From assembly GCA_963695875.1 (NCBI GenBank), contig CAVOID010000005.1:96001-160000 (forward strand): 64,000 nt of DNA, written 5' to 3'. This DNA is from an uncultured delta proteobacterium (GTDB taxonomy: Bacteria; Desulfobacterota; Syntrophia; Syntrophales; UBA2185). The notes under the pieces are model-generated. The model had not been told where the DNA came from and did no database searches. It saw nothing but the letters and a program-made list of their open reading frames with translations. Below are positions 41,232-58,913 of the stretch, piece after piece. A program made the position numbers and the translations under genes. Every line of letters begins with the position of its first letter. Positions within the stretch are counted from its first letter, which is position 1.

Positions 41232-42188
41232 ATGAACGAATTTGATGCAAGGATTAGGGAAGTATTACCTGAAGGTTTACGAAGCCAGGGAATCAATACA
41301 CTTCAGGTCAATGTCGGTCGTCATTGCAATCTGGCATGCACACACTGTCACCTTGAGTGCTCGCCCGGACGAACAGAAATGATGCCATGGAAGATCATGG
41401 AGAAGATCCTGGGATTGACGGAGCTGAATGCGTTCAGGCTGGTGGATATAACAGGAGGCTCTCCCGAATTGCATCCGGATTTCAGGCGCTTTCTATCAGC
41501 ACTGCGGGACAAAGGACAGATAGTTCAAGTCCGTACGAATCTGACAGCGCTTATGGAACCGTCTGTAAAGGAGATCATCCCATTTCTGAGAGACAAGGAG
41601 ATTCAACTCATCGGTTCGCTGCCCTGTTATATGGAAGAAAATGTCAATGCACAGCGAGGGGCCGATGCTTATCAGAAGAGTATTGCTGTTTTACGCCTCC
41701 TAAATCAGGCTGGCTACGGAATCGCAGATAAACTTCACCTGAACCTTGTCTTTAACCCAGGCGGACCTTTTCTGCCGCCTGATCAATGTGTTCTCGAGGA
41801 TACTTACCGTCAGGAATTGAAGGAACGCTTTGATATATCGTTCAATCGACTGTTGGTGATGACAAATATGCCGTTGGGGCGATTCCGCCGGTATCTCGAA
41901 CAGGAGAGGGAACTGGCAGAATATGTGTCCATGCTCAAAGAATCCTTCAACCCATCGACAATTGACGGATTGATGTGCCTCTACCAGATCAGCATCGACT
42001 GGGATGGGGCCATATACGACTGTGATTTTAATCTGGCCCTCGGCACGACGGTCAATCATAGCGCGCCGAAAAAGATCGAAACCTACGATCATGCTATGCT
42101 GAGCAGGCGGGAGATAGTAACCGATACCCATTGTTTCGGATGCACAGCCGGGTCCGGATCATCATGCGCGGGATCATTGATTATATGA
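41232..42188 (+). CDS. ArsS-like radical SAM protein (Cys form)
   Basis: LQVNVG..CNLACTHCH, DITGGSPE, SLPCY, YDCDFN, HCFGCTAGSGSSC. Confidence 0.88.
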   Translation: MNEFDARIREVLPEGLRSQGINTLQVNVGRHCNLACTHCHLECSPGRTEMMPWKIMEKILGLTELNAFRLVDITGGSPELHPDFRRFLSALRDKGQIVQVRTNLTALMEPSVKEIIPFLRDKEIQLIGSLPCYMEENVNAQRGADAYQKSIAVLRLLNQAGYGIADKLHLNLVFNPGGPFLPPDQCVLEDTYRQELKERFDISFNRLLVMTNMPLGRFRRYLEQERELAEYVSMLKESFNPSTIDGLMCLYQISIDWDGAIYDCDFNLALGTTVNHSAPKKIETYDHAMLSRREIVTDTHCFGCTAGSGSSCAGSLII

Positions 42189-42214
42189 ATGTAAATAGCC
42201 GTGGAAGATCAGCC

Positions 42215-42925
42215 ATGAGATCATGGACAGCTGCCCTGATAATCATTATCACCCTATCGGCTACTCCGGTCTTTGCGGAGAACAAACAGGTCCTTTTTCG
42301 TGAGGATTTTAACAGCCTCTCCACTTGGGAACCTCTCACCTTTCCGAAAATCAAAAAGCACTCAACTTATACCATCGTTACTGATGGGGGCCACTCTTTT
42401 TTGAAGGCGGAAAGTCACGCTTCCGCCTCGGCTATCGTCTATCGAAAAACTTTTAACGTATACGAATATCCGCTGATGAGTTGGAGATGGAAGGTAGATA
42501 ATGTATACAAAAAGGGAGACCCTCACAAAAAATCAGGGGATGATTACCCGATCCGGATATACGTCATATTTCAGTATGATCCGAAACAGGCTGATTTTAC
42601 GGAACAGCTGCAATACGGCATAGCTAAAACGCTCTATGGGAAATACCCGCCCGACAGTACGTTAAACTATGTATGGACGGGCTATCAGACCGATGAACGA
42701 ATTATCACTAATCCTTACACCGACAGGGCAAAGATAATCATCCTTGAGAATGATCGAAACAAGGTGGGAACCTGGGTCGAGGAGAAGGTGAATATCCTGG
42801 ATGACTACAGGACGGCCTTCGGCAAGGAACCACCGGCAACTGCAAGTATCGCTATCATGAACGACTCGGACGATACGGGAGAAATGGCTGTCTCATATGT
42901 TGATTACATCGAGGTGTTCAAATGA
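42215..42925 (+). CDS. DUF3047 family protein
   Basis: Signal peptide, SWRWKV, GDDYPIRIYV, LNYVW, IMNDSDDTG. Confidence 0.85.
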   Translation: MRSWTAALIIIITLSATPVFAENKQVLFREDFNSLSTWEPLTFPKIKKHSTYTIVTDGGHSFLKAESHASASAIVYRKTFNVYEYPLMSWRWKVDNVYKKGDPHKKSGDDYPIRIYVIFQYDPKQADFTEQLQYGIAKTLYGKYPPDSTLNYVWTGYQTDERIITNPYTDRAKIIILENDRNKVGTWVEEKVNILDDYRTAFGKEPPATASIAIMNDSDDTGEMAVSYVDYIEVFK

Positions 42926-43113
42926 AATACCCTTCCTGTGAAATAGCCTCAGTTATTCCCCCTTTATGAAAGGGGAACTGCACAGTTTTTTATGGTTACG
43001 CGCTGGAGCCTGCCCTCGAATGCTTTTATCGGGGGCGGAACAAGTCTCATGCTTTATGGTACCGCCACTGTGAATGAATGTTTCCTGCAAAAACACATTC
43101 AAAGAATCACACT

Positions 43114-44271
43114 ATGGATTTGATTTATTTTGATAACGCCGCTACTTCCTGGCCGAAGCCCGAAGAAACATACACTGCCATGGACCGCTACGGCAGGACG
43201 ATCGGCGGAAGCCCCGGCCGTTCGGGTCACAGGCGATCCATCGAGGCAGGCCGCATTATTCTGGACACGAGAGAGGCCCTTGCCCGGCTGCTTGGAATAG
43301 ATGATGTGTTTCAGCTCGTCTTTACGATGAATGCCACCGAGGCACTGAACCTGGCTATCTTTGGTCTCCTGTCTTCAGGCGACCATGTTATCACGTCGAG
43401 CATGGAACACAACTCGGTGATGAGGCCACTTCGGGCCCTGGAAGAAAGGGGTGTTGAAGTATCGGTCATCATGTGTTCGCCACGGGGAGAACTTGATCCC
43501 CAGGATGTCCTTGACGCCATAAAAAATAACACGAAGGCGATTTACCTGACCCACGCCTCCAATGTAACGGGCACAATCATGCCTATTCGTGAGGTCGGAA
43601 AAATTACCAGGGATCATGGCCTTACTTTTTGTATAGACGCGGCACAGACGGCGGGGGTCCTCACCCTTGATATAGATGAATTGAACATCGACCTCTTAGC
43701 CTTTACAGGCCATAAGTCGCTCTATGGCCCCCAGGGGACGGGAGGACTCTATATCAGAAAGAGTCTGGAGAAAGAAATCCAGCCGCTCATGGTGGGAGGT
43801 ACCGGCAGCCGTTCGGAGTTTGAAACACAGCCGGATTTCATGCCGGATAAATACGAATGCGGCACACCAAATGGCATCGGGCTTGCCGGGTTGGGCGCCG
43901 GTGTGGATTTTATCCTCGCGACAGGTATGAGTAACATACGGGCTAAAGAAAAGACTCTCACGCAACTCTTCCTCGATGGTTTGAAACCTATACAAGGCGT
44001 TACCATTTACGGCCCCGGCGACGCGACACGGCAAATTTCCGTAGTCTCTTTTAATATCGCCGGCGTAATGCCTTCCGAGGCCTCCCTGGCCCTTGATGAG
44101 CAATTCGGTATTATGTCCAGACCGGGACTCCATTGCGCGCCTTCTGCACACAGAACGATAGGCACTTTCCCGGGAGGCACTGTCCGTCTAAGTTTCGGAT
44201 ACTTTAACACCGAGGATGAGGTCGATCATGCCCTTGAGGCGGTGCGTAAATTAAGCCAGCAAGGGCAATGA
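43114..44271 (+). CDS. Class V PLP cysteine desulfurase / selenocysteine lyase family protein
   Basis: YFDNAATSWPKP, EHNSV, DAAQTAG, FTGHK, RPGLHCAP. Confidence 0.92.
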   Translation: MDLIYFDNAATSWPKPEETYTAMDRYGRTIGGSPGRSGHRRSIEAGRIILDTREALARLLGIDDVFQLVFTMNATEALNLAIFGLLSSGDHVITSSMEHNSVMRPLRALEERGVEVSVIMCSPRGELDPQDVLDAIKNNTKAIYLTHASNVTGTIMPIREVGKITRDHGLTFCIDAAQTAGVLTLDIDELNIDLLAFTGHKSLYGPQGTGGLYIRKSLEKEIQPLMVGGTGSRSEFETQPDFMPDKYECGTPNGIGLAGLGAGVDFILATGMSNIRAKEKTLTQLFLDGLKPIQGVTIYGPGDATRQISVVSFNIAGVMPSEASLALDEQFGIMSRPGLHCAPSAHRTIGTFPGGTVRLSFGYFNTEDEVDHALEAVRKLSQQGQ

Positions 44272-44439
44272 AAGAATGATACTCCTCCAGCGGGACAAAT
44301 AATGAACCAAAGCAGGACACGCGTTTTGCCTATCAGATTCAGAGATATATAAAAACTATCTCTATAATTTAATGTTAAAAATCCCCCCATCCCCCCCTTT
44401 CGCAAAGGTGGGGTTAGAGGGGATTTCGGGAGGTGCTTT

Positions 44440-45048
44440 ATGGCAAAAATCATTGATGCGAAAGGTCTGACCTGTCCGGAGCCCGTTATCCTCACCAAGA
44501 AAGCGCTGGAACAGCAGGATGACGTCATCGTTATCGTGGACGATGACATAGCCGTCGGAAACATTAAACGGCTGGGTGCGAAACTGGGACGTGCCATTAG
44601 TATTGAAAAGAAAGAAGGGGGAATTTCCCATATCCATATCTCCGGTAGTGTCGAGGCGGGGAAACAACCGGTTGCAGAAACTGACACCCCTCACTACGAA
44701 AGCTGCGGCCAGAATACCCTCGTAGTCGTCATATCTTCAGACCGGATGGGGCGGGGAGATGATGAATTAGGATATGTCCTTATCAGGAGTTTTATCCACA
44801 CCCTTCTTACTTTAAGCCCGCTCCCGGATACGATTATCTTCTACAACACCGGGGTTAAACTGGCGGCCAGGGATTCTGAGGTTATTGATGATCTGAAACA
44901 ATTAGAGAAGGCGGGCGTGTCCATTCTGGTATGCGGCACGTGCACAAATTACTTCGGCATTTCTAATGCACTCGGTGCAGGGTGCATCTCAAACATGTAC
45001 GACATCGCGAACACCATGGCCGGAGCGGGGAGGTTGATTACACCATGA
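44440..45048 (+). CDS. yedF: Sulfurtransferase-like selenium metabolism protein YedF (TusA plus DsrE domains)
   Basis: DAKGLTCPEPV, MGRGDDELG, FYNTGVKL, CGTC, SNMY. Confidence 0.88.
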   Translation: MAKIIDAKGLTCPEPVILTKKALEQQDDVIVIVDDDIAVGNIKRLGAKLGRAISIEKKEGGISHIHISGSVEAGKQPVAETDTPHYESCGQNTLVVVISSDRMGRGDDELGYVLIRSFIHTLLTLSPLPDTIIFYNTGVKLAARDSEVIDDLKQLEKAGVSILVCGTCTNYFGISNALGAGCISNMYDIANTMAGAGRLITP

Positions 45049-45272
45049 ACAAGGCGGAAACATATGAAGTGGTCTTGTTCACATCGGTAAGTCATGCCCT
45101 GCGGGCGGAAAAAATTCTTAAAGAGGCAGGAATATCTTTTAAACTTATACCTGTTCCGCGTCACATCAGCTCTGATTGTGGGGTATGTCTCAGGTTTTCC
45201 CCGGCTTACAGAAAACAGATAGAAGAAGCCCTTGCGGGCAAAGTGGATGTTAGTGAAATTCGAGTCCTATAG
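45045..45272 (+). CDS. DUF3343 protein
   Basis: FTSVSHALRAEK, PVPRHISSDCG; ATGA overlap with yedF. Confidence 0.85.
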   Translation: MNKAETYEVVLFTSVSHALRAEKILKEAGISFKLIPVPRHISSDCGVCLRFSPAYRKQIEEALAGKVDVSEIRVL

Positions 45273-45282
45273 AGCATGATCC

Positions 45283-45786
45283 TCATGCATTCTCCTTGGG
45301 CCCGCCGTTCCTTTGTTCATAATCCCTGATAGCTTCGAGCAATGCACTGGTACCTGAAAGAATACATTTAGCTTCGCGTCCGGGAATTCCCTCAAGAGCA
45401 AGGATAACATCAGCGTCGGTTATCCGTTTCGCCTCATCTATGGTTTTACCCCGGGCAAGAACTGTCGTCATGCTGCTTGTTGCAACGGCACCCGCACATC
45501 CGGAGGACAGGAATTTAATATCCGCAATTCTTCCTGAATCCACTTTAATCCACAACTTCATCCAGTCGCCGCAGGAGGGATCGCCGAGGTGGGCATATCC
45601 GTCAGCATGGGATATCTCACCAACATTACGGGGATTCGTAGAGTGGTCTGCCACCAGTTCGTTATAAAAAAGTACGGGACCATGGGGGAGCTCCATTCCC
45701 AGCTCCAGCTCCATATCTTCCGGTGTCTTTCTCCTATAGAGGTCCATCCAGTTATCAGATTTTCTCTTTGTTTGCCTTTGCCTCAT
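45283..45786 (-). CDS. IscU/NifU-like Fe-S scaffold protein
   Basis: DH..NPRNVG, PSCGD, GCAGAVATSS; start uncertain. Confidence 0.8.
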   Translation of the reverse strand: MRQRQTKRKSDNWMDLYRRKTPEDMELELGMELPHGPVLFYNELVADHSTNPRNVGEISHADGYAHLGDPSCGDWMKLWIKVDSGRIADIKFLSSGCAGAVATSSMTTVLARGKTIDEAKRITDADVILALEGIPGREAKCILSGTSALLEAIRDYEQRNGGPKENA

Positions 45787-45961
45787 TGTATCACCTGCTG
45801 TTGATCATCTTTCCGGAGGGCGAATATAGAAGAAGTAGCTATACATGTCAATGGAAAATTAAACGCGTTATGGGAGGGCATTTCTTCAGTACATGCATAT
45901 TTAACCGATTTATGTTATATTTTAAATCCAGCGATAAGGAAGGCGTAGCTGAGAATTATCC

Positions 45962-46037: not shown

Positions 46038-46123
46038 ATTTGTTATCGCTGGATTTGGGTATATATTAAATGATATTTAAGAAGACATGGCTCAACCCTG
46101 AGCCTGTCTGCCAAGGGAAATAA

Positions 46124-47404
46124 ATGAAAAAATTAACTGATCCTGACAAGATAACTTCACGGAAGCGTCAAGTCGAAAGAAAATACCCCCGTCTGTTTGA
46201 AAAGCTAAGCAAATCAGAGCAGGAAAAATCGGTCATTCTTGATGCCATGACAGAGCTCGTCTTGTACCTTGATAAAGATTTGAGGGTAATATGGGCCAAT
46301 AAGGCTATGCATGAATCGTTTAATCTGGCACCCGGCCAATTGAACAAGAGGCACTGCTATGAGGCACTTCATAACAGAAGCAGGGCATGCCGCATTTGTC
46401 CGGCTATGAAGACACTCGAGACCGGTGAGCCGCACGAGGTAATCGATTTTTCATCTTACAAAAAAAATTGGGTTTTACGCAGCTATCCCGTACGGGATGA
46501 AAAAGGTTCCCTCACCGGTATTGTGGAAATAGTCACTGACATAACCAGGCGAAGAAAAGCCGAAGAAGCTTTGAGGCAATCGGAACAGAAGTACCGGGAG
46601 CTTTTTGAGAATGCCAATGACATCATTTTCATTCTGGACTTCGACGGCAAGATCCTGTCCTGTAATGCAGCCGCCTTCAAAACCTATGGCTACGAACCGG
46701 AACGGATGCTGGGACTTAATATAGAGTATCTGCTGGACCCTGCTTATCTGCCGGTCGTCAGGCAGCTCATTCGTAGGAGACGCGACAACGTGGATGTTCA
46801 AAACCCGCAGGAATTTCTCACCTACACAAAAGATGGTGAAGCCGTCTGGGTGGAGGTTAACGCCCGCATCATGAGGGAAAATGGCAGGCAGGTTTCAATT
46901 CATGGCATTGCCCGCAACATCAGTGATCGCAAAAGGATAGAAGAGGCATTGAAAAAAAGGGAGCGGGAACTGGAAGAACAATCCCGGAACCTGGAAGAGG
47001 CAAATACTGCTCTTACGGTACTCCTCAAGCGCAGGGAGGAAGATAGAGCTGAATTGGAAGAAAAAGTAATTCACAACATGAGAGAGCTCATTCTGCCGTA
47101 TATCGAGAACCTGAAAATAACCGATATTGACAGCCATCAGTCAAATCAATTGAAAATCCTTGAGAGAAATATAAACGAGATCATTTCCCCGTTTCTACGC
47201 ACCCTGTCCTCGAAATATCCAAATCTCACTCCTACGGAAATAAAGATCATCACTTTTATAAAAGAAGGACGCACGACAAAGGAGATGGCGGAGCTGCTGA
47301 ATGCGTCAGCCAGGACAGTCGAAGTTCACCGTGATAATATCAGGAAAAAACTGGGGTTGAAAAACAGGAAAGCTAATCTTAGATCCCATTTATTGTCTTT
47401 ATAA
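46124..47404 (+). CDS. PAS-PAS-LuxR transcriptional regulator
   Basis: Two PAS/PAC domains; LTPTE...GRTTKEMA...TVEVHRDNIRKKLG. Confidence 0.92.
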   Translation: MKKLTDPDKITSRKRQVERKYPRLFEKLSKSEQEKSVILDAMTELVLYLDKDLRVIWANKAMHESFNLAPGQLNKRHCYEALHNRSRACRICPAMKTLETGEPHEVIDFSSYKKNWVLRSYPVRDEKGSLTGIVEIVTDITRRRKAEEALRQSEQKYRELFENANDIIFILDFDGKILSCNAAAFKTYGYEPERMLGLNIEYLLDPAYLPVVRQLIRRRRDNVDVQNPQEFLTYTKDGEAVWVEVNARIMRENGRQVSIHGIARNISDRKRIEEALKKRERELEEQSRNLEEANTALTVLLKRREEDRAELEEKVIHNMRELILPYIENLKITDIDSHQSNQLKILERNINEIISPFLRTLSSKYPNLTPTEIKIITFIKEGRTTKEMAELLNASARTVEVHRDNIRKKLGLKNRKANLRSHLLSL

Positions 47405-47621
47405 TCTCATTTAATCCTGATCCCGAAATACTTATTTTATATACGTATATATTACGTAATATTTCCGTATTGATATTTCCGTGGATAGATGGTTCCATGA
47501 ATAAACCCTCCGGACATGAATCCCCTCAGGAAGTTCCTGTTGCGGAAATCCGCAAAAAAGATTCCCATGTACGGAGAAAAATATTTTACATGAAATTCTT
47601 ACGAAAAAGGAGGAAAGATCA

Positions 47622-48164
47622 ATGACAAAAGAGGAGAAGATCGAGGAAATCCGTCAGCGTGCCCGGAAGAATTTTTCACTGGGGTATAATTGCGCGGAAT
47701 GTGTAGCCGAAGCGGTCCTGAGTCTCGTGGAGACGGGATTGCCCAAGGAAGCAAAAAAGATGGCAACAGGATTTGGCGGCGGCATCGGGCTTTTCGGAGA
47801 CACTTGCGGCGCACTGGCAGGGGCAGTAATGGCTGTGAGTGCCGTACACGGAAGGGCTTCGCTTCCTGAAGGGACTGATCCCAAGGATGTGGCGATGAAG
47901 TCAAAGGCCCAGTTCTATGGCAAGCCAGGCGTTTACCGTATTTTCAACCAGGTCCCCAATCGCTTCAAGACTAAATACGGCAAGACCCTTTGCAGGGACT
48001 TGACCGTTCCATGGCAGAACACCTGGCTTTGCAAGGAACACGCGCTATACTGTCGTGAGATAATCACAGAAGCTGCTGGAATTGCGGCAGACCTTGTTCT
48101 TTCCGACAAGGACGAACTGGCGGCAAAGCCCTTCGGGGACAATGTAGAAAACCTCAAGGACTGA
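47622..48164 (+). CDS. C-GCAxxG-C-C family putative redox protein
   Basis: YNCAE, GFGGGIG..GDTCGAL, TLCRDL, YC. Confidence 0.88.
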   Translation: MTKEEKIEEIRQRARKNFSLGYNCAECVAEAVLSLVETGLPKEAKKMATGFGGGIGLFGDTCGALAGAVMAVSAVHGRASLPEGTDPKDVAMKSKAQFYGKPGVYRIFNQVPNRFKTKYGKTLCRDLTVPWQNTWLCKEHALYCREIITEAAGIAADLVLSDKDELAAKPFGDNVENLKD

Positions 48165-48226
48165 TTGAGCATGGGAGATGTAAGCAGACCGGATGTGCTT
48201 GACATGATAAACAGGGAGGACATCGC

Positions 48227-49561
48227 ATGAGTCAAAAACTGGTTATTGTAGGAGGCGGGGCGGCAGGCCCATCATCGGCTGCCGAAGCCAAGAGAAGAAA
48301 CCCGTCTCTTGAAGTGACGATGGTCGAGAAGGGTGACTTTGTTTCCTACGCGGCCTGACCGATGCCCTATTACATCGGTGATGTAATCAAAGAATCAAAG
48401 AAGTTGGTTATCCGCACGCCGGAAGAATTCAAGAAAACGGGCATCGACGTAAAGATCAAGACACGCGTGGATGGTATCGATACCAAAAAGGGTTCTCTTT
48501 CTTTATCCGACGGCACGAGTCTTCCTTACGACCTCCTGGTCATGGCTACGGGGGCCGAAGCGAGCCGCCTGGATATTCCGGGCAGAGACCTGGAAGGCGT
48601 CTACGTCTTCAGGGACTTGACCGATGCCTTGAAGATGAAATCCTACCTGAACGAACAGGGCTGTAAGAAGGCAGTTCTGATCGGGGCAGGCTATATCGGC
48701 ATGGAGATGTGCGAGGCCCTGAGAAATCTGGGGATCGAAGTGAAGGTCATGGACATCCTGCCCCGGCCCACCGTACGGTGGGATGCCGAATTCACGAAGA
48801 TGATCGTGGAAGAGCTAGCCAAGAACCAGGTGGAGTTCCTTCCGGAGACGAAACCTCTAGCCATCGAAAAGGGGAAGGAATACCGGTTGAAACTGCAAAC
48901 CAGCGGCGGCGAACTGGATGCCGATCTCGTGCTGATGGGAGTGGGTACAAAGCGGAACGCCGTGCTTGCCGAATCTATGGGACTTGCCTTGGGTGAAAGC
49001 GGCGCCATCAAGGTGGATTTCCGGCAGAAGACATCCCGGGAAGGGGTCTATGCGGTGGGAGACTGCTGTGAGGTCTTCCACAAGGTCGCCGGAAGATGGG
49101 TCTATTTTCCTCTCGGCGATGTCGCCAACAAGCAGGGTCGTGTTGCCGGTCAGAACATCGGCGGTTATCCGGCAGAATTCCCGGGTATCGTGGGCGCCCA
49201 GGCCTTCAAGGTCTTCAACCTGGAGGTGGCTGCCACGGGACTTACGGAAGAGGAAGCCGCAAAATACGGGTTCCAGCCGGTGAGCGCCATGATCTGGGGT
49301 CTTCCTGTCGGCCGTCCCATGGCGAAAGGTGAAAAGCTGGGCGTGAAACTTGTCGGTGACAAAACGACGGGAAAACTTCTCGGCGGCCAGTGCATCGGTG
49401 AGAAAGGGGCCGTTCAACGGGTCAGCAGCCTTTCTGTTGCCCTGTGGGCGGGACTTTCCGTGGACGAGATCGGCTACCTTGATCTCCCATACGCGCCGCC
49501 CTTCGGAGGCGCCTGGGACGCCATCCACATCGCCGCCCAGTCTCTCAGGGGAAAGATGTAA
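48227..49561 (+). CDS. CoA-disulfide reductase / NADH oxidase-like flavoprotein (selenoprotein, Sec44)
   Basis: ATG 48227 after GGAGG; GGGAAG FAD motif; SYAA-U(TGA 48356-48358)-PMPY aligns with SYGACGLPY; hairpin ATTACATC-GGT-GATGTAAT after the UGA; GAGYIG, YAVGD, YAPP. Confidence 0.92.
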
Positions 49562-49628
49562 ATTGAGAAGTCATCGAAGAGAAATGTCCCGAGTGAATAA
49601 GACTCAACAGTGATGAGAGGATTCGAAG

Positions 49629-49953
49629 TTGGCATTAGAGAACGATCCGGGATTGGAGATAGTAGCCGTCAAGATCGGACGCGAGGTGCGAGGAAAGCTA
49701 CAGAGGTCTGGACGGCACATTCGCGAGTTTTGCGTATAGCTGTCTTGACAAAAAGGCTATGCCGGGTTTTCACGAAAAGGGTCTCATTGCTGAAGCTGAA
49801 CTGAAGGAAGGAGGCATGCTCCTCGTATTGTCCGGAAAGAGGACCGACAGCGAATTGATGGAAATCATGGACATTGCCTTAGAGAATATAGGGGCATTTC
49901 CCGGCGTGCGGGCCGGGGCAAAATATATAATAGACGTCAAGTCTAAAGAATAA
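49629..49953 (+). CDS. Small hypothetical protein, probably frameshifted
   Basis: Frame ending ...GAFPGVRAGAKYIIDVKSKE* lies between co-oriented genes; 5' part unclear. Confidence 0.35.
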
Positions 49954-49971
49954 ACTAATTCGGAGGATATT

Positions 49972-51423
49972 ATGGCATTAAAAACTTCAAAGGAGTATCT
50001 GGAGAGCGTAAAGAAACTGTCACCCCATGTCTATTGCGGGGGGAAATGGGTGAAGGGTCTGCTCAACAACAAAATAACGCGTTCCATGGTCATGGCCAAC
50101 GCGGCGATTTACGAGCTCGCTGAAGACCCGAAATACAAGGAAATCATGGTCGCTACATCCCACCTTACGGGAGAGCCAATCAACCGCAACCTTAACGTTG
50201 CACGCAACATCCACGACCTGGACATGCGGCAGGAGATGGCCCTCTTGACGAGCCAGACAGTGGGCACCTGCAACTACCGCTGCGTCGGTTGCGATGCCCT
50301 CAACAGCCTTGCCTCCACGACGTGGGAGATGGACCGGGATCTGGGAACGAAGTATAATGAAAGATTCAATAAGTGGCTTACATATGCGCAGGCCAACGAC
50401 CTGGCCGTCTCCGGCGCCATAACCGATGCAAAAGGAGACAGGAAAAAGAGGCCTTCCCAGCAGGACGAACCTGATACATACATTCACCTCGTCGAAAAAC
50501 GGCAAGACGGGATCGTGGTCCGCGGGATCAAGGTGAGCCAGAGCGGCGCCATAGGGTCGCATGAAACTCTTGTTCTTCCAGGCGGCGCCTTGAAAGAAGG
50601 CGAAGAGGCCTTCGCCCTGTGCTTCGCTGTTCAGAACGGAGCACCGGGGATTACATACATCTGCCAGTACAATGCATACTCGGCAGAGCGGGAATTTTGT
50701 GAAGAGGAAGCCGAGATTGGGAATCCCGTCTTCGGACAAAGGGAAACCTCGACAATGGTTTTTGACAATGTCTTCATTCCCTGGGAGCGGGTTTTCCTCT
50801 GCGGCGAGACCAAGTACTGCGGGAAAATGGTCACCCGGTTCGCCAAGGCCCACCGCATGAACTGCGGCGGGGCCTGCAAGGTGGGATTTGCCGACCTGAT
50901 TATCGGAGGCACCGTGCTTGCCGCCGAATACACCGGTGTGGACAAGGTCCCTCACATCCAGGAGAAGATCATCGACATGGTCCGCTTCAGCGAGACATCC
51001 CACGCCTGCGCTATCGCCGCAGCCATGCGGGGACGGGAAGAACCCAAGGGATCGGGCGTCTTCCTGCCGGATGATCTCTTCGGAAACGCAGCCAAGCTGA
51101 ACATCGCCCACGGATTCTGGGAAATCATCAAGAATGCCGGAGATATCGGCGGCGGCCTGGTTGTGACCATGCCGAGGCTGAAGGATCTTGAAGACCCGGA
51201 GGTCGGTCCCATGCTGAAAAAGGCTTTCACGGCTGCAGCCCCGGCGGAGAAGCGTCTCAAGGTCGCAAAGTTCCTGCAGCACTGGGCAGCCGGTCTGCAT
51301 GGCACGGGTACCTGGCACGGCGCCGGCGCCCCCCAGACCCAGCGGTTCATGATCTCTGTACTTACGGACTTTGACGCCAAGAAAAAGATGGCCAAGAAGC
51401 TCATGGGCATGAAGGAAGAATAA
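49972..51423 (+). CDS. 4-hydroxybutyryl-CoA dehydratase-like (AbfD/HpaB family) FAD/[4Fe-4S] enzyme
   Basis: GTCNYRCVGCDA, TDAKGDR, VFDNVFIPWERVF, HRMNCGGACK, HGAGAP. Confidence 0.85.
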   Translation: MALKTSKEYLESVKKLSPHVYCGGKWVKGLLNNKITRSMVMANAAIYELAEDPKYKEIMVATSHLTGEPINRNLNVARNIHDLDMRQEMALLTSQTVGTCNYRCVGCDALNSLASTTWEMDRDLGTKYNERFNKWLTYAQANDLAVSGAITDAKGDRKKRPSQQDEPDTYIHLVEKRQDGIVVRGIKVSQSGAIGSHETLVLPGGALKEGEEAFALCFAVQNGAPGITYICQYNAYSAEREFCEEEAEIGNPVFGQRETSTMVFDNVFIPWERVFLCGETKYCGKMVTRFAKAHRMNCGGACKVGFADLIIGGTVLAAEYTGVDKVPHIQEKIIDMVRFSETSHACAIAAAMRGREEPKGSGVFLPDDLFGNAAKLNIAHGFWEIIKNAGDIGGGLVVTMPRLKDLEDPEVGPMLKKAFTAAAPAEKRLKVAKFLQHWAAGLHGTGTWHGAGAPQTQRFMISVLTDFDAKKKMAKKLMGMKEE

Positions 51424-51640
51424 TTAAGGAGATCAAATGAAGAAAAAAGAGGCGAGGCGTTTTAGCTTGCCTCTTTTTATTTTGTCGGACTGAACTGTGA
51501 GATGTTTGAGTCAGCACACAACAACACGCTTTATCCCCTTTTCAAAATTATGACGTCAGTTGAGTTTATGAAGGACGTGTACAGATAATCTTTCATCTGA
51601 ACAGAGAATTTAAAACCCAGAATCATAAAGGAGGAATATC

Positions 51641-52348
51641 ATGAGCGAACCCACCATAATTGAGAAAGCATTTCATACCATCATGAAACGTATGGTAGAA
51701 ACCGGTCAGGCGCCCTTTTACACTGAGCTTGCCGCTGAACTCGGCCTTTCCGTTGAGGGAGGGCGGAAGGTGCTGCACGACCTTTTCTCCTCGGGAATCC
51801 CCGGATGGCTGTACCCCCGAACTGACCACATCGTCTCCTTTGCTCCGTTCAACAGCCTTCCGACACAATACAGGATCACCATCGACGGTCAGCAGAAATG
51901 GTTCGGCCAGTGAGCATTTGAATCGCTGGCGGTCTGCTGGCTATTCCCTGGCAAGACAGTGACAGTGGATTTCCCCTGTCTGGATTGCGGCGCTCCTCTC
52001 CGGGTGGCCATCCGGGACGGTATAGTTCTGAATAGTGAAGCCTCAGGGTACAAAGCCTATGTATCCGTGCCATTCTGGAAATGGTTTGAAGACCCGGGCT
52101 ATGCTTGAAGCACCATGACTCTCTTCCGGTCGGAAGAGCACGTCCGCAACTGGAAGTCCTTTGTCGAAGGCACCGACGAGGGCATCCTGTCAATGCCCGA
52201 TTTGCTCAAGCTGTTCTCCGGGCCTTTCTTCAGGCGGCGGATGGATGAAGACTATGTTTCCCACATGCGCGAATACGCCCGCGGGATGGTTGAAGCCATG
52301 AAAGAAATCGGCAAAACCGGCCCATTCTGGAAAAAGCCGAAAAATTGA
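51641..52348 (+). CDS. MerB-like (organomercurial lyase family) selenoprotein with two Sec residues
   Basis: One frame, 235 aa, with TGA at 51911 (WFGQ-U-AFES) and 52106 (GYA-U-STMTLFRSEEH); wHTH-like N-terminus, CLDC; hairpins after both UGAs. Confidence 0.88.
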
Positions 52349-52351
52349 TTC

Positions 52352-52417
52352 GGCCTTGTGTCGTGACAGGAATTGATTTCTGAAACCCCGCTCACTCATA
52401 AAGGAGCGGGGTTTTAT
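52352..52417 (+). terminator. Terminator-like hairpin, repeated at 58543-58608
   Basis: aaaccccgctc...gagcggggtttt. Confidence 0.65.
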
Positions 52418-52565
52418 GAAGAGTCTCGGGGCAGTTCAATTTTTTATCATCATTTAATAGAACTGTTTTTTATATTCTCCCGAGGAGCTGGCTAGGATAG
52501 AACAGTTGTGAAAAATCCTCTAATCTGATGTATGTGGTAATCAATGAATACGTCAGGACTCCCGC

Positions 52566-54424: not shown

Positions 54425-54883
54425 ATGGCAAGACCAAAATGTTGTCGGAGAGTAGCAGGAGAACCGGCCTGCGCGATTTTCAAGCCGGCCGGTATGCCTA
54501 TTTCAGTTCTTGATGAAGTAATCTTATCCATGGATGAGTTTGAGGCTATCCGGCTGGCCGATTTTGATGGGCTTTACCATGATAAGGCGGCAGAACAGAT
54601 GAACGTCTCACGGCAGACTTTCGGAAGGATTATTGAAGCGGCACGGCACAAGGTGGCTCAGGTGCTGGTCAAAGGTCTTGCCCTTCGCATTGAAGGAGGT
54701 GAAATTGAAATGGCCGAAACGCGAACTTTTAAATGTATGAAATGTCAGCATACATGGAATGTGCCTTTTGGTACAGGCAGACCCGCAATATGCCCGGCAT
54801 GCAATGATGCTGATATATGCAGAGCTGAAGGGCAGCGAGGACGAGGGAGACCCAGTTGGGCATGCCCGCGTGGCAGGAGATAG
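54425..54883 (+). CDS. DUF134 HTH protein with C-terminal Zn ribbon
   Basis: MARPKCCRRV, EFEAIRLAD, MNVSRQTF, CMKC...CPAC. Confidence 0.9.
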   Translation: MARPKCCRRVAGEPACAIFKPAGMPISVLDEVILSMDEFEAIRLADFDGLYHDKAAEQMNVSRQTFGRIIEAARHKVAQVLVKGLALRIEGGEIEMAETRTFKCMKCQHTWNVPFGTGRPAICPACNDADICRAEGQRGRGRPSWACPRGRR

Positions 54884-55040
54884 CGAAGGTCTTAAGCAGG
54901 ATACTCACTATCGAGCAACTGTTTATACTTGTATTTGAACCATTAAGATAATGTCTTTGGCGGAGTGAAATGAAGATCGTGCCGCCATCCAATGGGCGAT
55001 CTTTTCAGACAGTAATGAAGAATAAAGAGGAGATAATAAA

Positions 55041-55418
55041 ATGAAGGTTTGTTTTCCAACTGAAACATTGCAGGGAATGGACAGCAGAGTGTACGGACAT
55101 TTCGGGTCCGCACCTGGCTTTGTAATTGTGGATACGGGTAAGATGAGCGTGGAAGAAATCAACAATAACGATCTGCACCATATCCACGGCATGTGTCAAC
55201 CTCTCAAGGCTCTGGGAGGATTAAAGGTTGATGCCGTGGTTGTCGCCGGTATCGGCATGGGTGCGCTGGCGAAGCTGCAAGCTCAGGGGATCAAGGTTTA
55301 CCGTGGTGCACAGGGCACAGTTCAGCAAAATATTGATCTCATTCAGAACAATAAGCTGCCGCAATTTTTGGCTGATAACGCCTGTGCAGGCCATTCAGGC
55401 GGTGGGTGCGCCCACTAA
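55041..55418 (+). CDS. NifB/NifX family cluster-binding protein
   Basis: HFGSAPGF, HHIHGMC, GIGMGA. Confidence 0.88.
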   Translation: MKVCFPTETLQGMDSRVYGHFGSAPGFVIVDTGKMSVEEINNNDLHHIHGMCQPLKALGGLKVDAVVVAGIGMGALAKLQAQGIKVYRGAQGTVQQNIDLIQNNKLPQFLADNACAGHSGGGCAH

Positions 55419-55454
55419 TTGGCATGACCCAGAGGTTAATAAAGGAGATAGATT

Positions 55455-57146
55455 ATGTCGTTTAATGTACTTATTATCGGTGGAGTGGCCTGCGGGCCCA
55501 AAGCCGCATCGAGATTAAAACGCCTGCGTCCTGACGCGGACATCACAATTATCGAGAAGGGCAAAATGGTATCTTACGGAGCCTGCGGACTGCCATATTT
55601 TGTGGAGGGGGTGTTTTCCGAAATTGATACACTCATCAAGACACCAGTGGGTGTTCCCAGAACGCCCGCCTTTTTTGAAAAGGTGAAAGGGGTCAAGGTT
55701 CTTACACAAATCGAAGCTCTGAAAATTGATCAGGGTAAAAAGGTGGTGCATGTAAAAAACCTGGAAACCGGTGCCGAAGAGGATATGGGCTACGACAAAC
55801 TTGTTTTGGCCACCGGAGGGTCTCCGTGCCGGCCAAACATTCCAGGCCTTGATCTCAAGAACGTGTGGTTCATGGCGCATCCCGATCATGCCCTCAGTTT
55901 GAAAAAAGAGATTGCGGTGCAGGGTTTGAAAAAGGCCGTCCTGGTCGGGGCCGGGTTTATTGGCATTGAATTAGCGGAAGCTCTTGTTCGTCAGGGGCTT
56001 GAGGTGACAGTTGTCGAGATGTGCGATCAAATTATGCCCGGCGTTCTGGACAAGGATGTAGCCATGTTTGCCGCTAAACATTTGCGTCAGAAGGGCGTAA
56101 ACCTTATTCTGGGAGAGTGCGTTACCGGAATTGAAGGCACGGAAAAGGCAGCCGCGGTCAAAACCACCAAGCAAAGCATCCCGGCGGATGTCGTAGTCGT
56201 TGCGGTTGGAACACGCCCCAACGATAAACTGGCAAAGGAAGCCGGGCTTTTGTGTACTCAGCAGGGTGGCATTGTCATTAACGAATATTGCCAGACGAGC
56301 AATAAAGATATTTATGCGGGCGGCGATTGCGTGGTGAACCGGTATGTGAATGGGAGCTTTGGCGCCCTTCTTTATGTACCCTTGGGGTCGACGGCCAATA
56401 AACATGGCAGGGTCATTGCTAACCATATAGCAGGCTTGCCCACTCCGTTCAACGGTATTGCGTGCACCGCCATCGTCAGGGCCTTTGATATTACCATCGG
56501 CAGAACCGGCTTAACGGAAAGACAGGCTCGTGAGTTGAAAATGGATATAGAAACATTTACCCTGACGGGTCCTGATTTACCTCATTATATGCCGGACAAC
56601 AAACCTCTGGTCATCAAAATGATCGCCTCCAGAAGGGATCGAAAACTGATCGGCGTCCAGGTGGCGGGGCCCGGCAATGGCGCAAAGCGCCTGGATGTGG
56701 CAGCGAGTATGATACTAATGGGCGGCACCATGGATCAGCTTGCCGATGTGGATTTTGGTTATGCACCGCCATATAGCACGGCACTTGATCCTCTGGCGGC
56801 ATGCGCGCATATGTTAACCAACAAACTGGATGGTATTGCTGACGGCGTCTCAGCCCTTGAGGCGAAGGAACGTATAGAAAAGGGCGATGTCCTGTTGTTG
56901 GATGTGCGGACTCCCGACGAATTCCAGACTATGCAGTTGCCTTACGATGTTCTCCACATTCCACTGGGCGCGCTAAGAGGCAAGGCTGCTGAACTGCCCA
57001 AAGACAAAGATATCCTCGCTTTCTGCAAGATAAGTCTGCGCGGCTATGAGGCGCAAAGGATTCTAAACGCCGCCGGATTTGACAGGGTGCAATTCATCGA
57101 AGGGGGCATTGTAGGATGGCCGTTTGAAGTAAAGATGTTGAAATGA
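55455..57146 (+). CDS. CoA-disulfide reductase-rhodanese fusion (Cys form)
   Basis: GGVACG, SYGACGLPY, GAGFIG, YAPPY, LDVR, FCKISLRG. Confidence 0.9.
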   Translation: MSFNVLIIGGVACGPKAASRLKRLRPDADITIIEKGKMVSYGACGLPYFVEGVFSEIDTLIKTPVGVPRTPAFFEKVKGVKVLTQIEALKIDQGKKVVHVKNLETGAEEDMGYDKLVLATGGSPCRPNIPGLDLKNVWFMAHPDHALSLKKEIAVQGLKKAVLVGAGFIGIELAEALVRQGLEVTVVEMCDQIMPGVLDKDVAMFAAKHLRQKGVNLILGECVTGIEGTEKAAAVKTTKQSIPADVVVVAVGTRPNDKLAKEAGLLCTQQGGIVINEYCQTSNKDIYAGGDCVVNRYVNGSFGALLYVPLGSTANKHGRVIANHIAGLPTPFNGIACTAIVRAFDITIGRTGLTERQARELKMDIETFTLTGPDLPHYMPDNKPLVIKMIASRRDRKLIGVQVAGPGNGAKRLDVAASMILMGGTMDQLADVDFGYAPPYSTALDPLAACAHMLTNKLDGIADGVSALEAKERIEKGDVLLLDVRTPDEFQTMQLPYDVLHIPLGALRGKAAELPKDKDILAFCKISLRGYEAQRILNAAGFDRVQFIEGGIVGWPFEVKMLK

Positions 57147-58513: not shown

Positions 58514-58913
58514 ATCTTCAGCTGAACCGGGAACAGTAATTTGGCCTTGCGCCGTGACAGGAATTGATTCCTGAAATCCTCCTCACTCAGACCTGAGCGG
58601 GGTTTTATTTTTTTCGACTTTTATCAACGAATCTTATGTAACCAATAGGTCATATGTTTTTTATTGAAAGAAATACTTCGATCTTTTGAACTACAATGCA
58701 AGACTTCCTTTCTCAGAGTGGGGCATTATTACTCAATGGGCGAGGAAAAGTATCTCAGCAGAGGAAGAAAATTCCATACTCGTCTTTCAATAACTTATTA
58801 TTATCATGGGGGAGTAATATTATTTTTCGTCCTGGTATAGATAATGCAATATTACAAATAAATGAAATTAAAGCAGGTCAGCTTTATTTTACAAGTTTCA
58901 GGAGGTGTCAGCT

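Follow-up and report, generated by a model that had tools for sequence, protein, structure and literature searches.

The locus described here, in a selenium-rich neighborhood of a Syntrophales genome, probably consists of three transcription units: a regulator gene, a four-gene operon, and a MerB-like gene. The first unit is probably the PAS-PAS-LuxR regulator gene alone. The second appears to be an operon at positions 47622-51423 of the window (the whole 64,000-nucleotide stretch of DNA analyzed), which codes for a C-GCAxxG-C-C family Cys-rich protein, a selenocysteine (Sec) flavoprotein of the CoADR family, an accessory protein of ~108 amino acids, and a variant of the AbfD-family [4Fe-4S]/FAD enzymes; the third is likely to be a separately terminated MerB-like gene, in which both metal-binding cysteines are replaced by Sec. 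The four-gene unit around this unusual relative of 4-hydroxybutyryl-CoA dehydratase (4HBD) is conserved and hitherto uncharacterized.

All five genes called in the earlier note were found in place on the + strand. The first of them (46124-47404) codes for a one-component regulator with two PAS domains and a LuxR/GerE helix-turn-helix (Pfam PAS_4, PAS_9, and GerE). In an intergenic alignment of 13 loci, invariant and near-invariant columns were concentrated in a block upstream of the C-GCAxxG-C-C gene (47429-47500, + strand), with the remaining spacer unconserved; this block contains three TAC(G/T)TA boxes (at 47429, 47442, and 47453) and palindromes, and may act as an operator or promoter. When the small gene was restored, the gaps within 47622-51423 were 62, 67, and 18 nt, and no hairpin was detected at 49562-49640 by folding against shuffled sequences (z +0.6). 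An intrinsic terminator closing the core operon was found at 51444-51483 (+ strand; -23.2 kcal/mol, z -3.0, equalled by 1 of 200 shuffles), and was also listed by the terminator scan with the tail TTTTTATTTT. The limits of the operon were set from the short gaps, the lack of a hairpin at 49562-49640, this terminator, and the conserved upstream block; on these features, the four genes would be co-transcribed and termination at 51444-51483 would be efficient. The single operon of co-oriented genes proposed previously does end at a terminator-like hairpin after the MerB-like gene (52378-52415, + strand; z -3.4, short U tract), which the terminator scan did not list because only 4 T follow the stem. 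The proposal probably holds for the four tightly spaced middle genes, but the MerB-like gene lies beyond the terminator at 51444-51483, and the regulator is probably apart. The ~108-codon gene, the tight gaps left by its restoration, this inner terminator, and the scar of a deleted isochorismatase-like gene (see below) had escaped the earlier note.

The three Sec codons previously read in two proteins are real, as judged from GGU-loop hairpins, the Sec machinery of the genome, TGA codons kept in orthologues, and compensatory changes in the stems. Each of the in-frame TGAs at 48356, 51911, and 52106 is followed by a GGU-loop hairpin 10-12 nt downstream. When all TGA triplets of the window were checked on both strands (128 kb) against a pattern defined post hoc, after the sites had been seen (6-9 bp stem starting 8-13 nt after the TGA, loop beginning GGT), 5 sites were obtained, three of which were these codons; the mean was 2.1 sites in shuffled windows (n=20). 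The genome encodes tRNA-Sec, SelA (609 bits), SelD (395 bits; the gene has its own TGA), and SelB, the gene of which is split into two frames in the assembly. The TGA of the flavoprotein gene (48356-48358) was kept in 37/37 orthologues with 64-96% identity, and the stem of its SECIS hairpin (48369-48387, + strand; 8-bp stem, GGU loop) in 31 of 32 distinct orthologous sequences, while codons further downstream vary freely; the only two changes in the stem were A-to-G, non-synonymous, and retained G-U pairing. The MerB-like gene has two TGAs (51911-51913 and 52106-52108), and among its 44 matches (at least 41% identity, 401 genomes of the phylum), 43 had at least two TGAs and no Cys form was found. 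Its first hairpin (51925-51941, + strand; 6-bp stem, GGUCU loop) was present at 37 of 38 other-family loci; in L091, both arms show a compensatory replacement of GCUGGC by GCCGGC. The second (52121-52138, + strand; 7-bp stem, GGUC loop) was present at 38/38 (weak at one locus), and in L079 and L080 a U-A pair is replaced by G-C, again a compensatory change.

The regulator gene and the operon form a gene cluster conserved across Syntrophales, in which two gene pairs moved as units. Among 50 close loci (AbfD-like orthologue with at least 83% identity), the small gene was found at 46, the C-GCAxxG-C-C gene at 38, the Sec-CoADR gene at 35, and the PAS-LuxR gene (68-91% identity) at 36. The co-occurrence elsewhere that the earlier note had looked to was indeed observed, all four partners lying beside the AbfD-like enzyme at 28 of these loci. 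The C-GCAxxG-C-C/flavoprotein pair (the former gene immediately 5' of the latter in related loci) and the small/AbfD pair stay together across at least three gene orders: PAS-CGC-CoADR-small-AbfD, where CGC is the C-GCAxxG-C-C gene; PAS-small-AbfD-CGC-CoADR (L156 and L160); and, with short gaps, small-AbfD-HdrD-like-CGC-CoADR/rhodanese-CoADR(U) (L164 and L174). The HdrD-like Fer4/CCG gene was part of the cluster at 17 of 79 related loci. A C-GCAxxG-C-C gene follows a 56%-identical AbfD variant in a genome of another family (G177), and a PAS-LuxR gene lies upstream of a 55%-identical variant in G050. Since the loci with the full cluster come mostly from one order, the synteny partly reflects shared descent. 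At least five close loci (L178, L180, L184, L189, and L211) have the PAS-LuxR gene, small gene, and enzyme but lack a C-GCAxxG-C-C/flavoprotein pair within 8-10 kb, and this pair is ~9 kb off on the opposite strand in L158 and L163. At 18 loci with 76-83% identity, mostly from Syntrophobacteraceae, the three redox or regulator partners were found in none and the small gene in one, indicating that the partners are not obligatory for the enzyme clade.

The enzyme (49972-51423, + strand) belongs to the HpaB/AbfD family. The [4Fe-4S] ligands C99, C103, H292, and C299 align with those of PDB 1u8v (E 9e-113) and E257 is kept, while the substitutions Q101Y, T190S, Y296C (with a one-residue insertion), and E455G were found. 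The motifs HRM-x-C-GG-x-CK and C-x-Y-RC were read in 102 of 103 sequences (49-100% identity), whereas the Tyr and CFQRC were kept in 18 of 19 readable paralogues (38-47% identity); a branch with an SH-aLRT of 100 split the two groups in a quick tree search (mistranslated row L266 ignored). In a preprint (bioRxiv 10.1101/2020.02.05.935528), T190, E257, Y296, and E455 are reported to be important for 4-hydroxybutyryl-CoA dehydration; the clade kept the cluster ligands and lost two of these four residues. The separate clade and altered catalytic residues set the AbfD-like gene apart from those for ordinary 4-hydroxybutyryl-CoA dehydratases, a point on which the reading in the earlier note depended; judged by its sequence, the enzyme is not one of these.

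The accessory gene (49629-49953, + strand) contains a +1 frameshift near 49690, its longest open piece being 49759-49953. Its upstream part is conserved at the protein level in relatives, and a profile of the small protein matched only positions 19-107 in this genome versus 3-108 in others. The frameshift is either a sequencing error or the mark of a dead gene; the SelB gene in two frames points to assembly indels. The profile gave hits at 53 related loci, in each case immediately 5' of the enzyme gene, and one hit in this genome; of 301 genomes from the order, 58 have the gene. The small protein matched no Pfam or NCBIfam family, and its model (pLDDT 90) no fold above Z 4.4 among solved structures. 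In three runs, the predicted complex with the AbfD variant scored 0.85, 0.85, and 0.00 (best control, 0.00), with a partner pLDDT of at least 73 and a run agreement of at least 0%; among reference cases, 116 of 157 solved complexes but just 2 of 215 mismatched pairs attained this mark. The predicted interface contains the family-invariant G29-T30-F31, G46, and N86, and the near-invariant P45. The small protein is thus predicted to bind the AbfD variant.

The first gene of the operon (47622-48164, + strand) codes for a putatively redox-active C-GCAxxG-C-C protein, above the cut-offs of PF09719 (90.5 bits vs 27) and TIGR01909 (70.7 bits vs 47.4). The Sec flavoprotein (48227-49561, + strand) belongs to the CoADR/NADH-oxidase family, with 6ruz as the best solved match (E 7e-96); its U (local motif SYAA-U-PMPYY) takes the place of the single redox-active Cys and is matched in the alignment to the active-site Cys of 'SYGACGLPY'. 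A C-GCAxxG-C-C neighbor was found at none of 27 loci of distant Sec flavoproteins (at most 56% identity). The window also contains a rhodanese-type CoADR gene (55455-57146).

It is possible, although in our judgment unlikely, that these genes are unrelated neighbors by descent: a working 4-hydroxybutyryl-CoA dehydratase/vinylacetyl-CoA isomerase of crotonate or butyrate metabolism, beside a general defence of a strict anaerobe against CoA disulfide, peroxide, or oxygen (the Sec flavoprotein and Cys-rich protein). The retained Fe-S ligands and E257 and the strong match to 1u8v are consistent with this, and Tyr101 could functionally replace Tyr296, so that the enzyme might still dehydrate 4-hydroxybutyryl-CoA. 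No canonical paralogue was found in this genome (completeness 83%) at E 1e-60 or better, and the variant could therefore be its only 4HBD. The Syntrophobacteraceae enzyme has no partners, a dehydrogenase gene of the 3-hydroxyisobutyrate/succinic-semialdehyde-reductase type is near the enzyme gene at 10 of 79 related loci, and Sec-CoADR-type proteins are common across the phylum, usually without a link to AbfD. On the other hand, Y296 and E455 are both replaced, and the cluster-bearing genomes G007 and G381 also have a canonical Tyr-type paralogue, making the variant an extra enzyme there. Furthermore, at least three rearrangements left the gene pairs together, the association with a C-GCAxxG-C-C gene is seen again, independently, in G177, and variant clusters add S-S reductases (HdrD-like and CoADR-rhodanese) in tight operons with the enzyme.

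The MerB-like protein (51641-52348, + strand) matched PF03243 with 60 bits (cut-off 27), and U91, E94, and U156 align with Cys96, Asp99, and Cys159 of MerB, respectively. Relative to its relatives, ~590 nt between the AbfD-like and MerB-like genes are deleted: blastn matched 51300-51514 and 51519-51700 of the window to segments of L146 that are ~590 nt apart, and tblastn identified 51499-51579 (+ strand) as what is left of an isochorismatase-like gene, from its 3' end. An intact isochorismatase-like hydrolase gene at 57950-58513 (+ strand), with a nucleotide match and 87-92% protein identity to the copy of relatives, is by sequence the relocated counterpart of the gene that these relatives have between the AbfD-like and MerB-like genes; the hairpin segment found after the MerB-like gene is duplicated behind this gene, at ~58540-58610.

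The earlier note had placed the MerB-like protein in the pathway. On that reading, all six genes would make up one selenium-dependent catabolic operon for carbon-heteroatom cleavage on an acyl-CoA-linked substrate, MerB serving as the lyase. We consider this very unlikely, although the genes are co-oriented and adjacent, MerB follows the enzyme at 12 of 50 close loci (usually behind the isochorismatase-like gene), and some MerB-like genes of other families have genes for an amidase, a CoA-transferase, an acyl-CoA ligase, or an SDR next to them; such surroundings are sparse (4 to 8 of 44 loci per family) and point to catabolism, not to mercury resistance. Between the enzyme and MerB lie a strong terminator and a 217-nt spacer that bears the deletion scar, the isochorismatase-like partner is relocated 6 kb away in this genome, and the core occurs without MerB at 38 of 50 close loci, the 12 with it belonging to the nearest relatives only. 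At 40/40 loci of other families, none of the genes of the cluster is nearby (no AbfD-variant orthologue, C-GCAxxG-C-C gene, or small gene within 9.5 kb). The MerB-like gene is thus a lineage-specific neighbor. Also very unlikely is mercury or organomercury detoxification with the adjoining flavoprotein in the role of MerA, since in spite of the PF03243 match, the triad positions kept as U, E, and U, and a partial match of the flavoprotein to the MerA model TIGR02053, the latter reached 129.8 bits against a cut-off of 454, the flavoprotein resembles the CoADR/Nox group in its single N-terminal redox residue, the MerB equivalog model gave 26.5 against 193, no MerR, MerT, or MerP family turned up when the genes between 28 and 63 kb of the window were scanned with Pfam, and no mer gene recurred among neighbors at 44 other loci.

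For the preferred arrangement of a regulator, a four-gene operon, and a separate MerB-like gene, we infer radical chemistry that acts on an acyl-CoA and is linked to a thiol or persulfide. Together with the small subunit, the AbfD variant would catalyze an elimination or isomerization of the ketyl-radical type, on an acyl-CoA other than 4-hydroxybutyryl-CoA or on the same one handled differently, and its new active-site Cys may participate. The Cys-rich protein and the Sec flavoprotein, with NAD(P)H, would reduce a disulfide, persulfide, or mixed CoA disulfide formed or needed by the reaction, and the PAS-LuxR protein would turn the operon on. For the four-gene core, carbon-heteroatom cleavage on an acyl-CoA, the leaving group being recycled by the reductase and Cys-rich protein, is conceivable. 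The MerB-like enzyme may cleave a carbon-metal(loid) bond independently, as a lyase that acts by protonolysis.

Compared with MerB (PDB 1s6l and 3f0p; MerB2, 5c17), the MerB-like protein shares the PF03243 match and aligned catalytic triad positions, but similarity is weak (E 1e-4 to 0.1), Sec stands in for both Cys and Glu for Asp, mer genes are absent from the vicinity, and the protein has a C-terminal extension of ~60 residues. SaoL (NF040728), the MerB-like selenoprotein of the SAO locus described by Haft and Gwadz (bioRxiv 10.1101/2022.07.06.499078) as an organometallic lyase, has in common with it the MerB fold, a Sec at the Cys159 position, and occurrence in anaerobes outside a mer operon. 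SaoL contains a single Sec, within a C-U dipeptide, and has Cys where MerB has Cys96, whereas the protein here has U91 and U156, with Ala preceding U156 and Glu replacing Asp99; it scored 30.8 with NF040728 (cut-off 140), and no SAO-type neighborhood was seen around its gene. The flavoprotein shares its fold and one Sec at the redox-active Cys position with Sec CoADR/Nox proteins, but its motif is U-P-M-P, versus U-G-x-P as listed in a review, and it scored below both CoADR equivalog cut-offs (377.9 vs 458 and 359.5 vs 578.8); unlike more distant Sec CoADR forms, its orthologues keep company with a C-GCAxxG-C-C gene and an AbfD variant. CoA persulfide/polysulfide reductases with a rhodanese domain (PDB 3ntd and 8a56) belong to the same flavoprotein family; the Sec flavoprotein lacks this domain, and a persulfide may be its substrate. 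Finally, the enzyme is homologous over its full length to AbfD from Clostridium aminobutyricum (1u8v, E 9e-113) and 4HBD from Nitrosopumilus maritimus (6vjr, E 7e-99), sharing the HpaB_N + HpaB_C architecture, all four [4Fe-4S] ligands, and E257, but differs in the four substitutions and the insertion described above and forms a separate clade. While solved 4-hydroxybutyryl-CoA dehydratases are homotetramers (10.1101/2020.02.05.935528), the Syntrophales/Bacillota subclade has a dedicated 108-aa partner, predicted to bind the enzyme, and its gene cluster contains S-S reductase genes in place of those of the 4-hydroxybutyrate pathway.

The window covers 96001-160000 of contig 5 in a 2.86-Mb metagenome-assembled genome (16 contigs; 83% complete), and the names on related contigs include Syntrophales, Syntrophaceae, Smithella, and Syntrophus. 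Every gene in positions 46124-52417 is carried on the + strand: a PAS-PAS-LuxR regulator (46124-47404), a C-GCAxxG-C-C protein (47622-48164), a flavoprotein of the CoADR/NADH-oxidase family (48227-49561; in-frame TGA at 48356), a small gene of about 108 codons (49629-49953; frameshifted in the assembly), an HpaB/AbfD-family protein (49972-51423), and a MerB-family protein (51641-52348; in-frame TGAs at 51911 and 52106). Once the small gene was restored, the gaps between the four genes in 47622-51423 came to 62, 67, and 18 nt, and a folding test of 49562-49640, which spans the spacer between the flavoprotein and small genes, gave no hairpin that stood out. A strong intrinsic terminator (51444-51483, + strand; z of -3.0, with a T-rich tail) was found directly after the stop codon of the AbfD-like gene. 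The region is read as three putative transcription units: the regulator, a four-gene operon (47622-51423), and the MerB-like gene. A block with three TAC(G/T)TA boxes (47429-47500), upstream of the C-GCAxxG-C-C gene, was conserved in 13 loci with otherwise different spacers. When the spacers of the regulator, C-GCAxxG-C-C, small, and MerB-like genes were compared for 12-mers (one mismatch at most), only the ribosome-binding site was common, giving no sign that the regulator also controls the MerB-like gene. A perfect inverted repeat of 12-14 nt (AAATCCAGCGATAA and its complement, ~120 nt away; 45924-45937 and 46043-46056) was present upstream of the regulator gene. The first PAS domain of the regulator contained, at residues ~77-91 (46350-46400), a Cys-x10-Cys-x2-Cys motif (…HCYEALHNRSRACRICP…) that could bind a metal or cluster; if so, the regulator would be a redox or metal sensor.

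The assignment of the three in-frame TGAs (48356, 51911, and 52106) to selenocysteine, made in the earlier note, was confirmed by downstream hairpins, orthologue conservation, and the Sec machinery of the genome. A hairpin of 6-8 bp with a loop starting GGU was found 10-12 nt after each TGA. A scan of all TGA triplets in the 64-kb window (both strands) with this pattern gave five sites, three of which were these Sec codons, vs a mean of 2.1 in 20 shuffles; the pattern had been written after the sites were seen, and this comparison is therefore not fully independent. Independent support for Sec decoding comes from sequence conservation among orthologues. The flavoprotein TGA was at the same position in 37/37 orthologues (64-96% identity), and its SECIS stem nucleotides were kept in 31 of 32 distinct orthologue sequences: the only two changes were non-synonymous A-to-G substitutions preserving G-U pairing, and the codons just downstream varied freely. 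Among 44 MerB-like matches (at least 41% identity) in 401 genomes of the phylum, 43 contained at least two TGAs and none was a cysteine form; the two hairpins recurred in 37/38 and 38/38 loci of other families, with compensatory changes on both arms. tRNA-Sec, SelA, and SelD were present in the own genome, as was SelB (contig 9, 79843-81742, - strand), split between two overlapping frames (207 and 164 bits). A hairpin with an apical-loop G shortly after the UGA, its conservation, and the Sec machinery, as in bacterial selenoprotein genes, were all found, with the caveat of the two-frame SelB. Together with the frameshift of the small gene at ~49690, the split SelB points to erroneous indels in the assembly; were SelB truly broken, no selenoprotein gene of this genome would be functional.

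SelD (selenide, water dikinase) is encoded in the window (30609-31658, - strand; 401.8 bits vs a cut-off of 125) and is itself a selenoprotein, its TGA falling within the GAG-U-ACK motif; standard ORF calling places the start past this TGA and drops the N-terminus. A gene for an ArsS-type radical SAM (seleno)protein was found at 41232-42194 on the + strand (TIGR04167; 397.9 bits vs 300). Its TGA at 42186 would make Sec the penultimate residue (…SLII-U-M-stop), and it overlaps the start of a DUF3047 gene (42131-42925). Just upstream of the cluster, a selenium/sulfur handling set (43078-45786) contained an SclA-like cysteine desulfurase/selenocysteine lyase (TIGR01977; 484 bits) and YedF (TIGR03527; 201 bits); a DUF3343 Se/S-carrier-like protein and a divergent NifU-like scaffold were also encoded there. 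With this set, SelD, the ArsS-type protein, and the three Sec codons, the window is unusually rich in selenium genes.

Sec44 of the flavoprotein was aligned with the single active-site Cys of 6ruz and 6pfz (NADH oxidases/CoA-disulfide reductases), and this single N-terminal redox residue was accompanied by Pyr_redox_2, Pyr_redox, and Pyr_redox_dim domains. The scores were below the CoADR equivalog cut-offs: 377.9 vs 458 (NF007123) and 359.5 vs 578.8 (TIGR03385). The C-GCAxxG-C-C protein was above its cut-offs: 90.5 vs 27 (PF09719) and 70.7 vs 47.4 (TIGR01909). Sec-CoADR and C-GCAxxG-C-C appear among the selenoprotein or Cys-rich families in the tables of PMC9312934 and PMC13188914. A second Sec-containing CoADR-family gene with one TGA (56% identity) was found on contig 4 of the own genome (254912-256240, - strand). 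Downstream in the window (54425-57146) were genes for DUF134, a NifX/FeMo-cofactor-binding-like protein, and a CoADR-rhodanese fusion (563 aa, no TGA); the DUF134 and NifX-like genes directly followed the cluster in four related loci (L154, L179, L186, and L187).

The AbfD-like enzyme possessed the fold of 4HBD (HpaB_N, PF11794, 272 bits; HpaB_C, PF03241, 179 bits) and was similar over the full length to AbfD from C. aminobutyricum (1u8v; E of 9e-113, residues 3-481). All of the [4Fe-4S] ligands, Cys99, Cys103, His292, and Cys299 (AbfD numbering), were aligned, and the equivalent C100, C104, H294, and C302 were invariant in 20 orthologues. T190, E257, Y296, and E455 were reported to be important for dehydration by 4HBD (bioRxiv 10.1101/2020.02.05.935528). 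E257 was kept and T190 was substituted by Ser, while the other two were replaced: Y296 by Cys, beside a one-residue insertion, and E455 by Gly; Q101 was changed to Tyr. The 103 clade members compared (49-100% identity) span many families, Bacillota and a Dehalococcoidia MAG among them, and 102 had Cys at the Tyr296 position. The lone exception, locus L161, had Tyr at this position beside a truncated flavoprotein gene. At 8817-11446 of L161, the truncation lies just past the TGA and the small gene is missing; this locus may be a decaying copy of the cluster. Paralogues at 38-47% identity kept CFQRC, HRQSYGGCK, and TESMHGAG, with Tyr in 18 of the 19 readable sequences and His in one. In a quick ML tree of the family (one mistranslated row left aside), 20 Tyr-type and 34 Cys-type rows were split by a branch with an SH-aLRT of 100, and the enzyme did not group with canonical 4HBDs. 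A canonical paralogue was also present in two cluster-bearing relatives (G007 and G381). As far as its sequence indicates, the AbfD-like enzyme is not an ordinary 4HBD; the separate clade, Y296C, and E455G set its gene apart from ordinary 4-hydroxybutyrate pathway enzymes.

The 410-nt "gap" before the AbfD-like gene held a 64-codon ORF (49759-49953) conserved in relatives, in which the protein reached ~43 codons further upstream. In the window, two frames were needed to encode the same residues, with a change of frame (+1) within a short stretch of A near 49690, and the family profile covered positions 19-107 vs 3-108 in other genomes. The profile and two-frame coding place the gene at 49629-49953; since SelB is also split, an assembly indel appears to be the simpler reading of the frameshift. 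The small protein had no Pfam or NCBIfam family. Its model was confident (pLDDT 90), and no solved fold was matched by Foldseek against the PDB at E <=0.001 (best, 0.14), no clear counterpart by VIA-align over 48,161 chains (best Z, 4.4), and no entry in the ESM Atlas at 0.9 or above (best, 0.89; unnamed clusters), a lack of matches that does not show the fold to be new. The profile matched at 53 related loci, each time directly upstream of the gene for the variant enzyme, and once in the own genome, with no match in 27 loci of the 49-62% enzyme clade or in Syntrophobacteraceae loci. The gene was found in 58/301 genomes of the order (9/24 families), one per genome. Complex predictions of the small protein with the AbfD variant gave 0.85, 0.85, and 0.00 over three runs vs 0.00 for the best control (partner pLDDT of at least 73; run agreement of at least 0%), a mark attained by 116/157 solved complexes vs 2/215 mismatched pairs. 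The predicted interface included the invariant G29-T30-F31, G46, and N86 and the near-invariant P45 of the small protein. The modelling supports binding of the small protein to the AbfD variant as a putative subunit.

Neighbourhoods of up to 10 kb on each side were compared at 79 loci with AbfD-like relatives. Among 50 loci at 83% identity or higher (Syntrophales), the small gene was found in 46, the C-GCAxxG-C-C gene in 38, the PAS-LuxR gene in 36, and the Sec flavoprotein gene in 35; all four partners were present in 28, the MerB-like gene in 12, and the isochorismatase-like gene in 10. Several of the loci lacking one of the partners were on short contigs. The usual order was regulator-C-GCAxxG-C-C-flavoprotein-small-enzyme. 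Two loci (L156 and L160) had regulator-small-enzyme-C-GCAxxG-C-C-flavoprotein, and two others (L164 and L174) small-enzyme-HdrD-like-C-GCAxxG-C-C-CoADR/rhodanese-flavoprotein, with short gaps. In G177, from another family, a C_GCAxxG_C_C gene came after an enzyme with 56% identity, and a PAS-LuxR gene preceded a 55%-identical enzyme (G050). The HdrD-like Fer4/CCG gene was in the cluster at 17/79 loci; in the own genome (83% complete), one query gave a weak 26%-identical match only. Its TGA stop in L164 was considered as a Sec codon and rejected, since TAA or TAG was found there in 10/17 orthologues. The pairs C-GCAxxG-C-C plus flavoprotein and small gene plus enzyme move as units and stay together, so that plain descent is an insufficient explanation. 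This behavior and the replaced Y296 and E455 tell against the main rival explanation, in which a normal dehydratase adjoins a thiol-defence pair of general function. Three sets of loci speak against an obligatory link: five close loci, where the enzyme is accompanied by the regulator and small gene alone; 18 loci, mostly from Syntrophobacteraceae and with 76-83% identity, where the regulator or redox pair was found in 0/18 and the small gene in 1/18; and 27 loci of more distant Sec flavoproteins, none with a C-GCAxxG-C-C neighbour. The earlier note had proposed a candidate selenium-dependent catabolic operon, the MerB-like gene included, that could cleave a carbon-heteroatom bond on an acyl-CoA-linked substrate; taken as one operon, this is right only in part. 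Co-occurrence of the genes elsewhere held, with all four partners at 28/50 loci in several gene orders, and the core cluster is conserved; the MerB-like gene, behind the terminator and mostly unlinked to the core, falls outside it.

The MerB-like protein scored 60 vs 27 for PF03243 and 26.5 vs 193 for the equivalog NF009710; Sec91, Glu94, and Sec156 aligned with Cys96, Asp99, and Cys159 of MerB. No mer context (MerR, MerT/P, or MerA) was found in Pfam scans of the window genes or among recurrent neighbours at 44 other loci. It also differed from SaoL (NF040728, 30.8 vs 140), having two Sec residues, the second preceded by Ala. An isochorismatase-like gene has left its last ~100 nt in the 217-nt stretch that separates the terminator from the MerB-like gene, with ~590 nt deleted relative to related loci; an intact copy is present 6 kb downstream (57950-58513), and after it the post-MerB hairpin segment occurs again. 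This segment of ~65 nt occurs at 52352-52420 and 58540-58610. The segment duplication and the deletion at 51515 look as if an isochorismatase-MerB unit had been duplicated and complementary deletions had then occurred. Within relatives, the MerB-like gene was found in 15/41, all of the window's own family, and followed the cluster at 12/17 fetched loci. In the phylum, it occurred in 51/401 genomes of many families. Orthologues of the enzyme, small, C-GCAxxG-C-C, and isochorismatase-like genes were absent within 9.5 kb on each side in 40/40 other-family loci, where distant relatives were one 40%-identical CoADR, one 38%-identical PAS-LuxR, and, at one locus, a 33%-identical AbfD-family gene 8 kb away. 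The neighbours in other families were diverse (amidase, SDR, CoA-transferase, acyl-CoA ligase, and ABC transport), and clustering of 730 ORFs gave no neighbour family in more than 8/44 loci. By its distribution, the MerB-like gene is a local addition to the cluster, and its product most probably acts by itself, as a lyase that uses selenol groups to cleave a carbon-metal(loid) bond.

With the anatomy, Sec decoding, conserved linkage, and changed active site of the cluster established, a mechanism may be proposed. The variant enzyme and its subunit would use flavin/Fe-S radical chemistry for an elimination or isomerisation of an acyl-CoA, with cysteine taking the place of tyrosine; the Cys-rich protein and selenoenzyme would pass electrons from NAD(P)H to a disulfide or persulfide tied to this reaction, the HdrD-like protein and rhodanese-CoADR may join the electron route in some genomes, and the regulator would sense a signal via its PAS domains. 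Sulfur chemistry is hinted at mainly by the fact that S-S-reducing proteins have been recruited repeatedly. A much more specific version, which we regard as a long shot, is that the enzyme, 108-aa subunit, C-GCAxxG-C-C protein, and Sec flavoprotein, joined in some genomes by the HdrD-like and rhodanese-CoADR proteins, act together as a new lyase system that breaks carbon-sulfur (or carbon-selenium) bonds by a radical route. Its substrate would be a 4-thio-substituted acyl-CoA, from which the enzyme would strip a gamma-thiol or thioether through ketyl-radical chemistry of the AbfD type. The sulfur would pass as a persulfide to the new active-site Cys and then to the Cys-rich protein as its carrier, and the selenoenzyme would use NAD(P)H for the final reduction to sulfide. 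If true, this would be a route into organosulfur acids for syntrophs in peat and digesters.

AbfD is among the few known flavin and Fe-S enzymes performing radical dehydration at an unactivated position, and syntrophs control carbon flow to methane in peat and digesters. A large sister clade of AbfD is added here, with the Fe-S cluster kept and two dehydration residues changed, and in Syntrophales and some Bacillota it is accompanied by a small subunit of its own and by a disulfide-reductase pair that obligately contains Sec. This clade is a concrete lead to new anaerobic acyl-CoA chemistry in syntrophs, and the C-GCAxxG-C-C and Sec-CoADR families gain a testable biological partner. Gene callers would cut the flavoprotein and MerB-like genes at each UGA and miss the 108-codon gene, and annotation would label the AbfD variant 4-hydroxybutyryl-CoA dehydratase or HpaB. 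The literature searched gave no description of this gene combination as a pathway, in agreement with the earlier note, or of the cluster, the Cys-variant AbfD, and its small subunit, within partial coverage of work on selenoprotein neighbourhoods; a two-Sec MerB was likewise not found there or in the selenoprotein tables of PMC9312934 and PMC13188914. The lasting content of the finding is a conserved, uncharacterised enzyme system around the variant AbfD.

Among known systems, AbfD/4HBD shares with the window enzyme the fold, full-length similarity, all four cluster ligands, and E257, whereas the latter has S, C, and G at T190, Y296, and E455 and a one-residue insertion. The flavoprotein resembles CoA-disulfide reductases in its single active-site position and domains, but scores under both equivalog cut-offs. 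The only MerB-like selenoprotein in the tables of PMC9312934 and PMC13188914 is SaoL, with one Sec in a C-U motif; the window MerB-like protein differs in having two Sec, with Ala before the second. MerB itself carries the Cys96/Asp99/Cys159 triad, whereas the window protein has Sec/Glu/Sec at these positions and stands outside a mer context.
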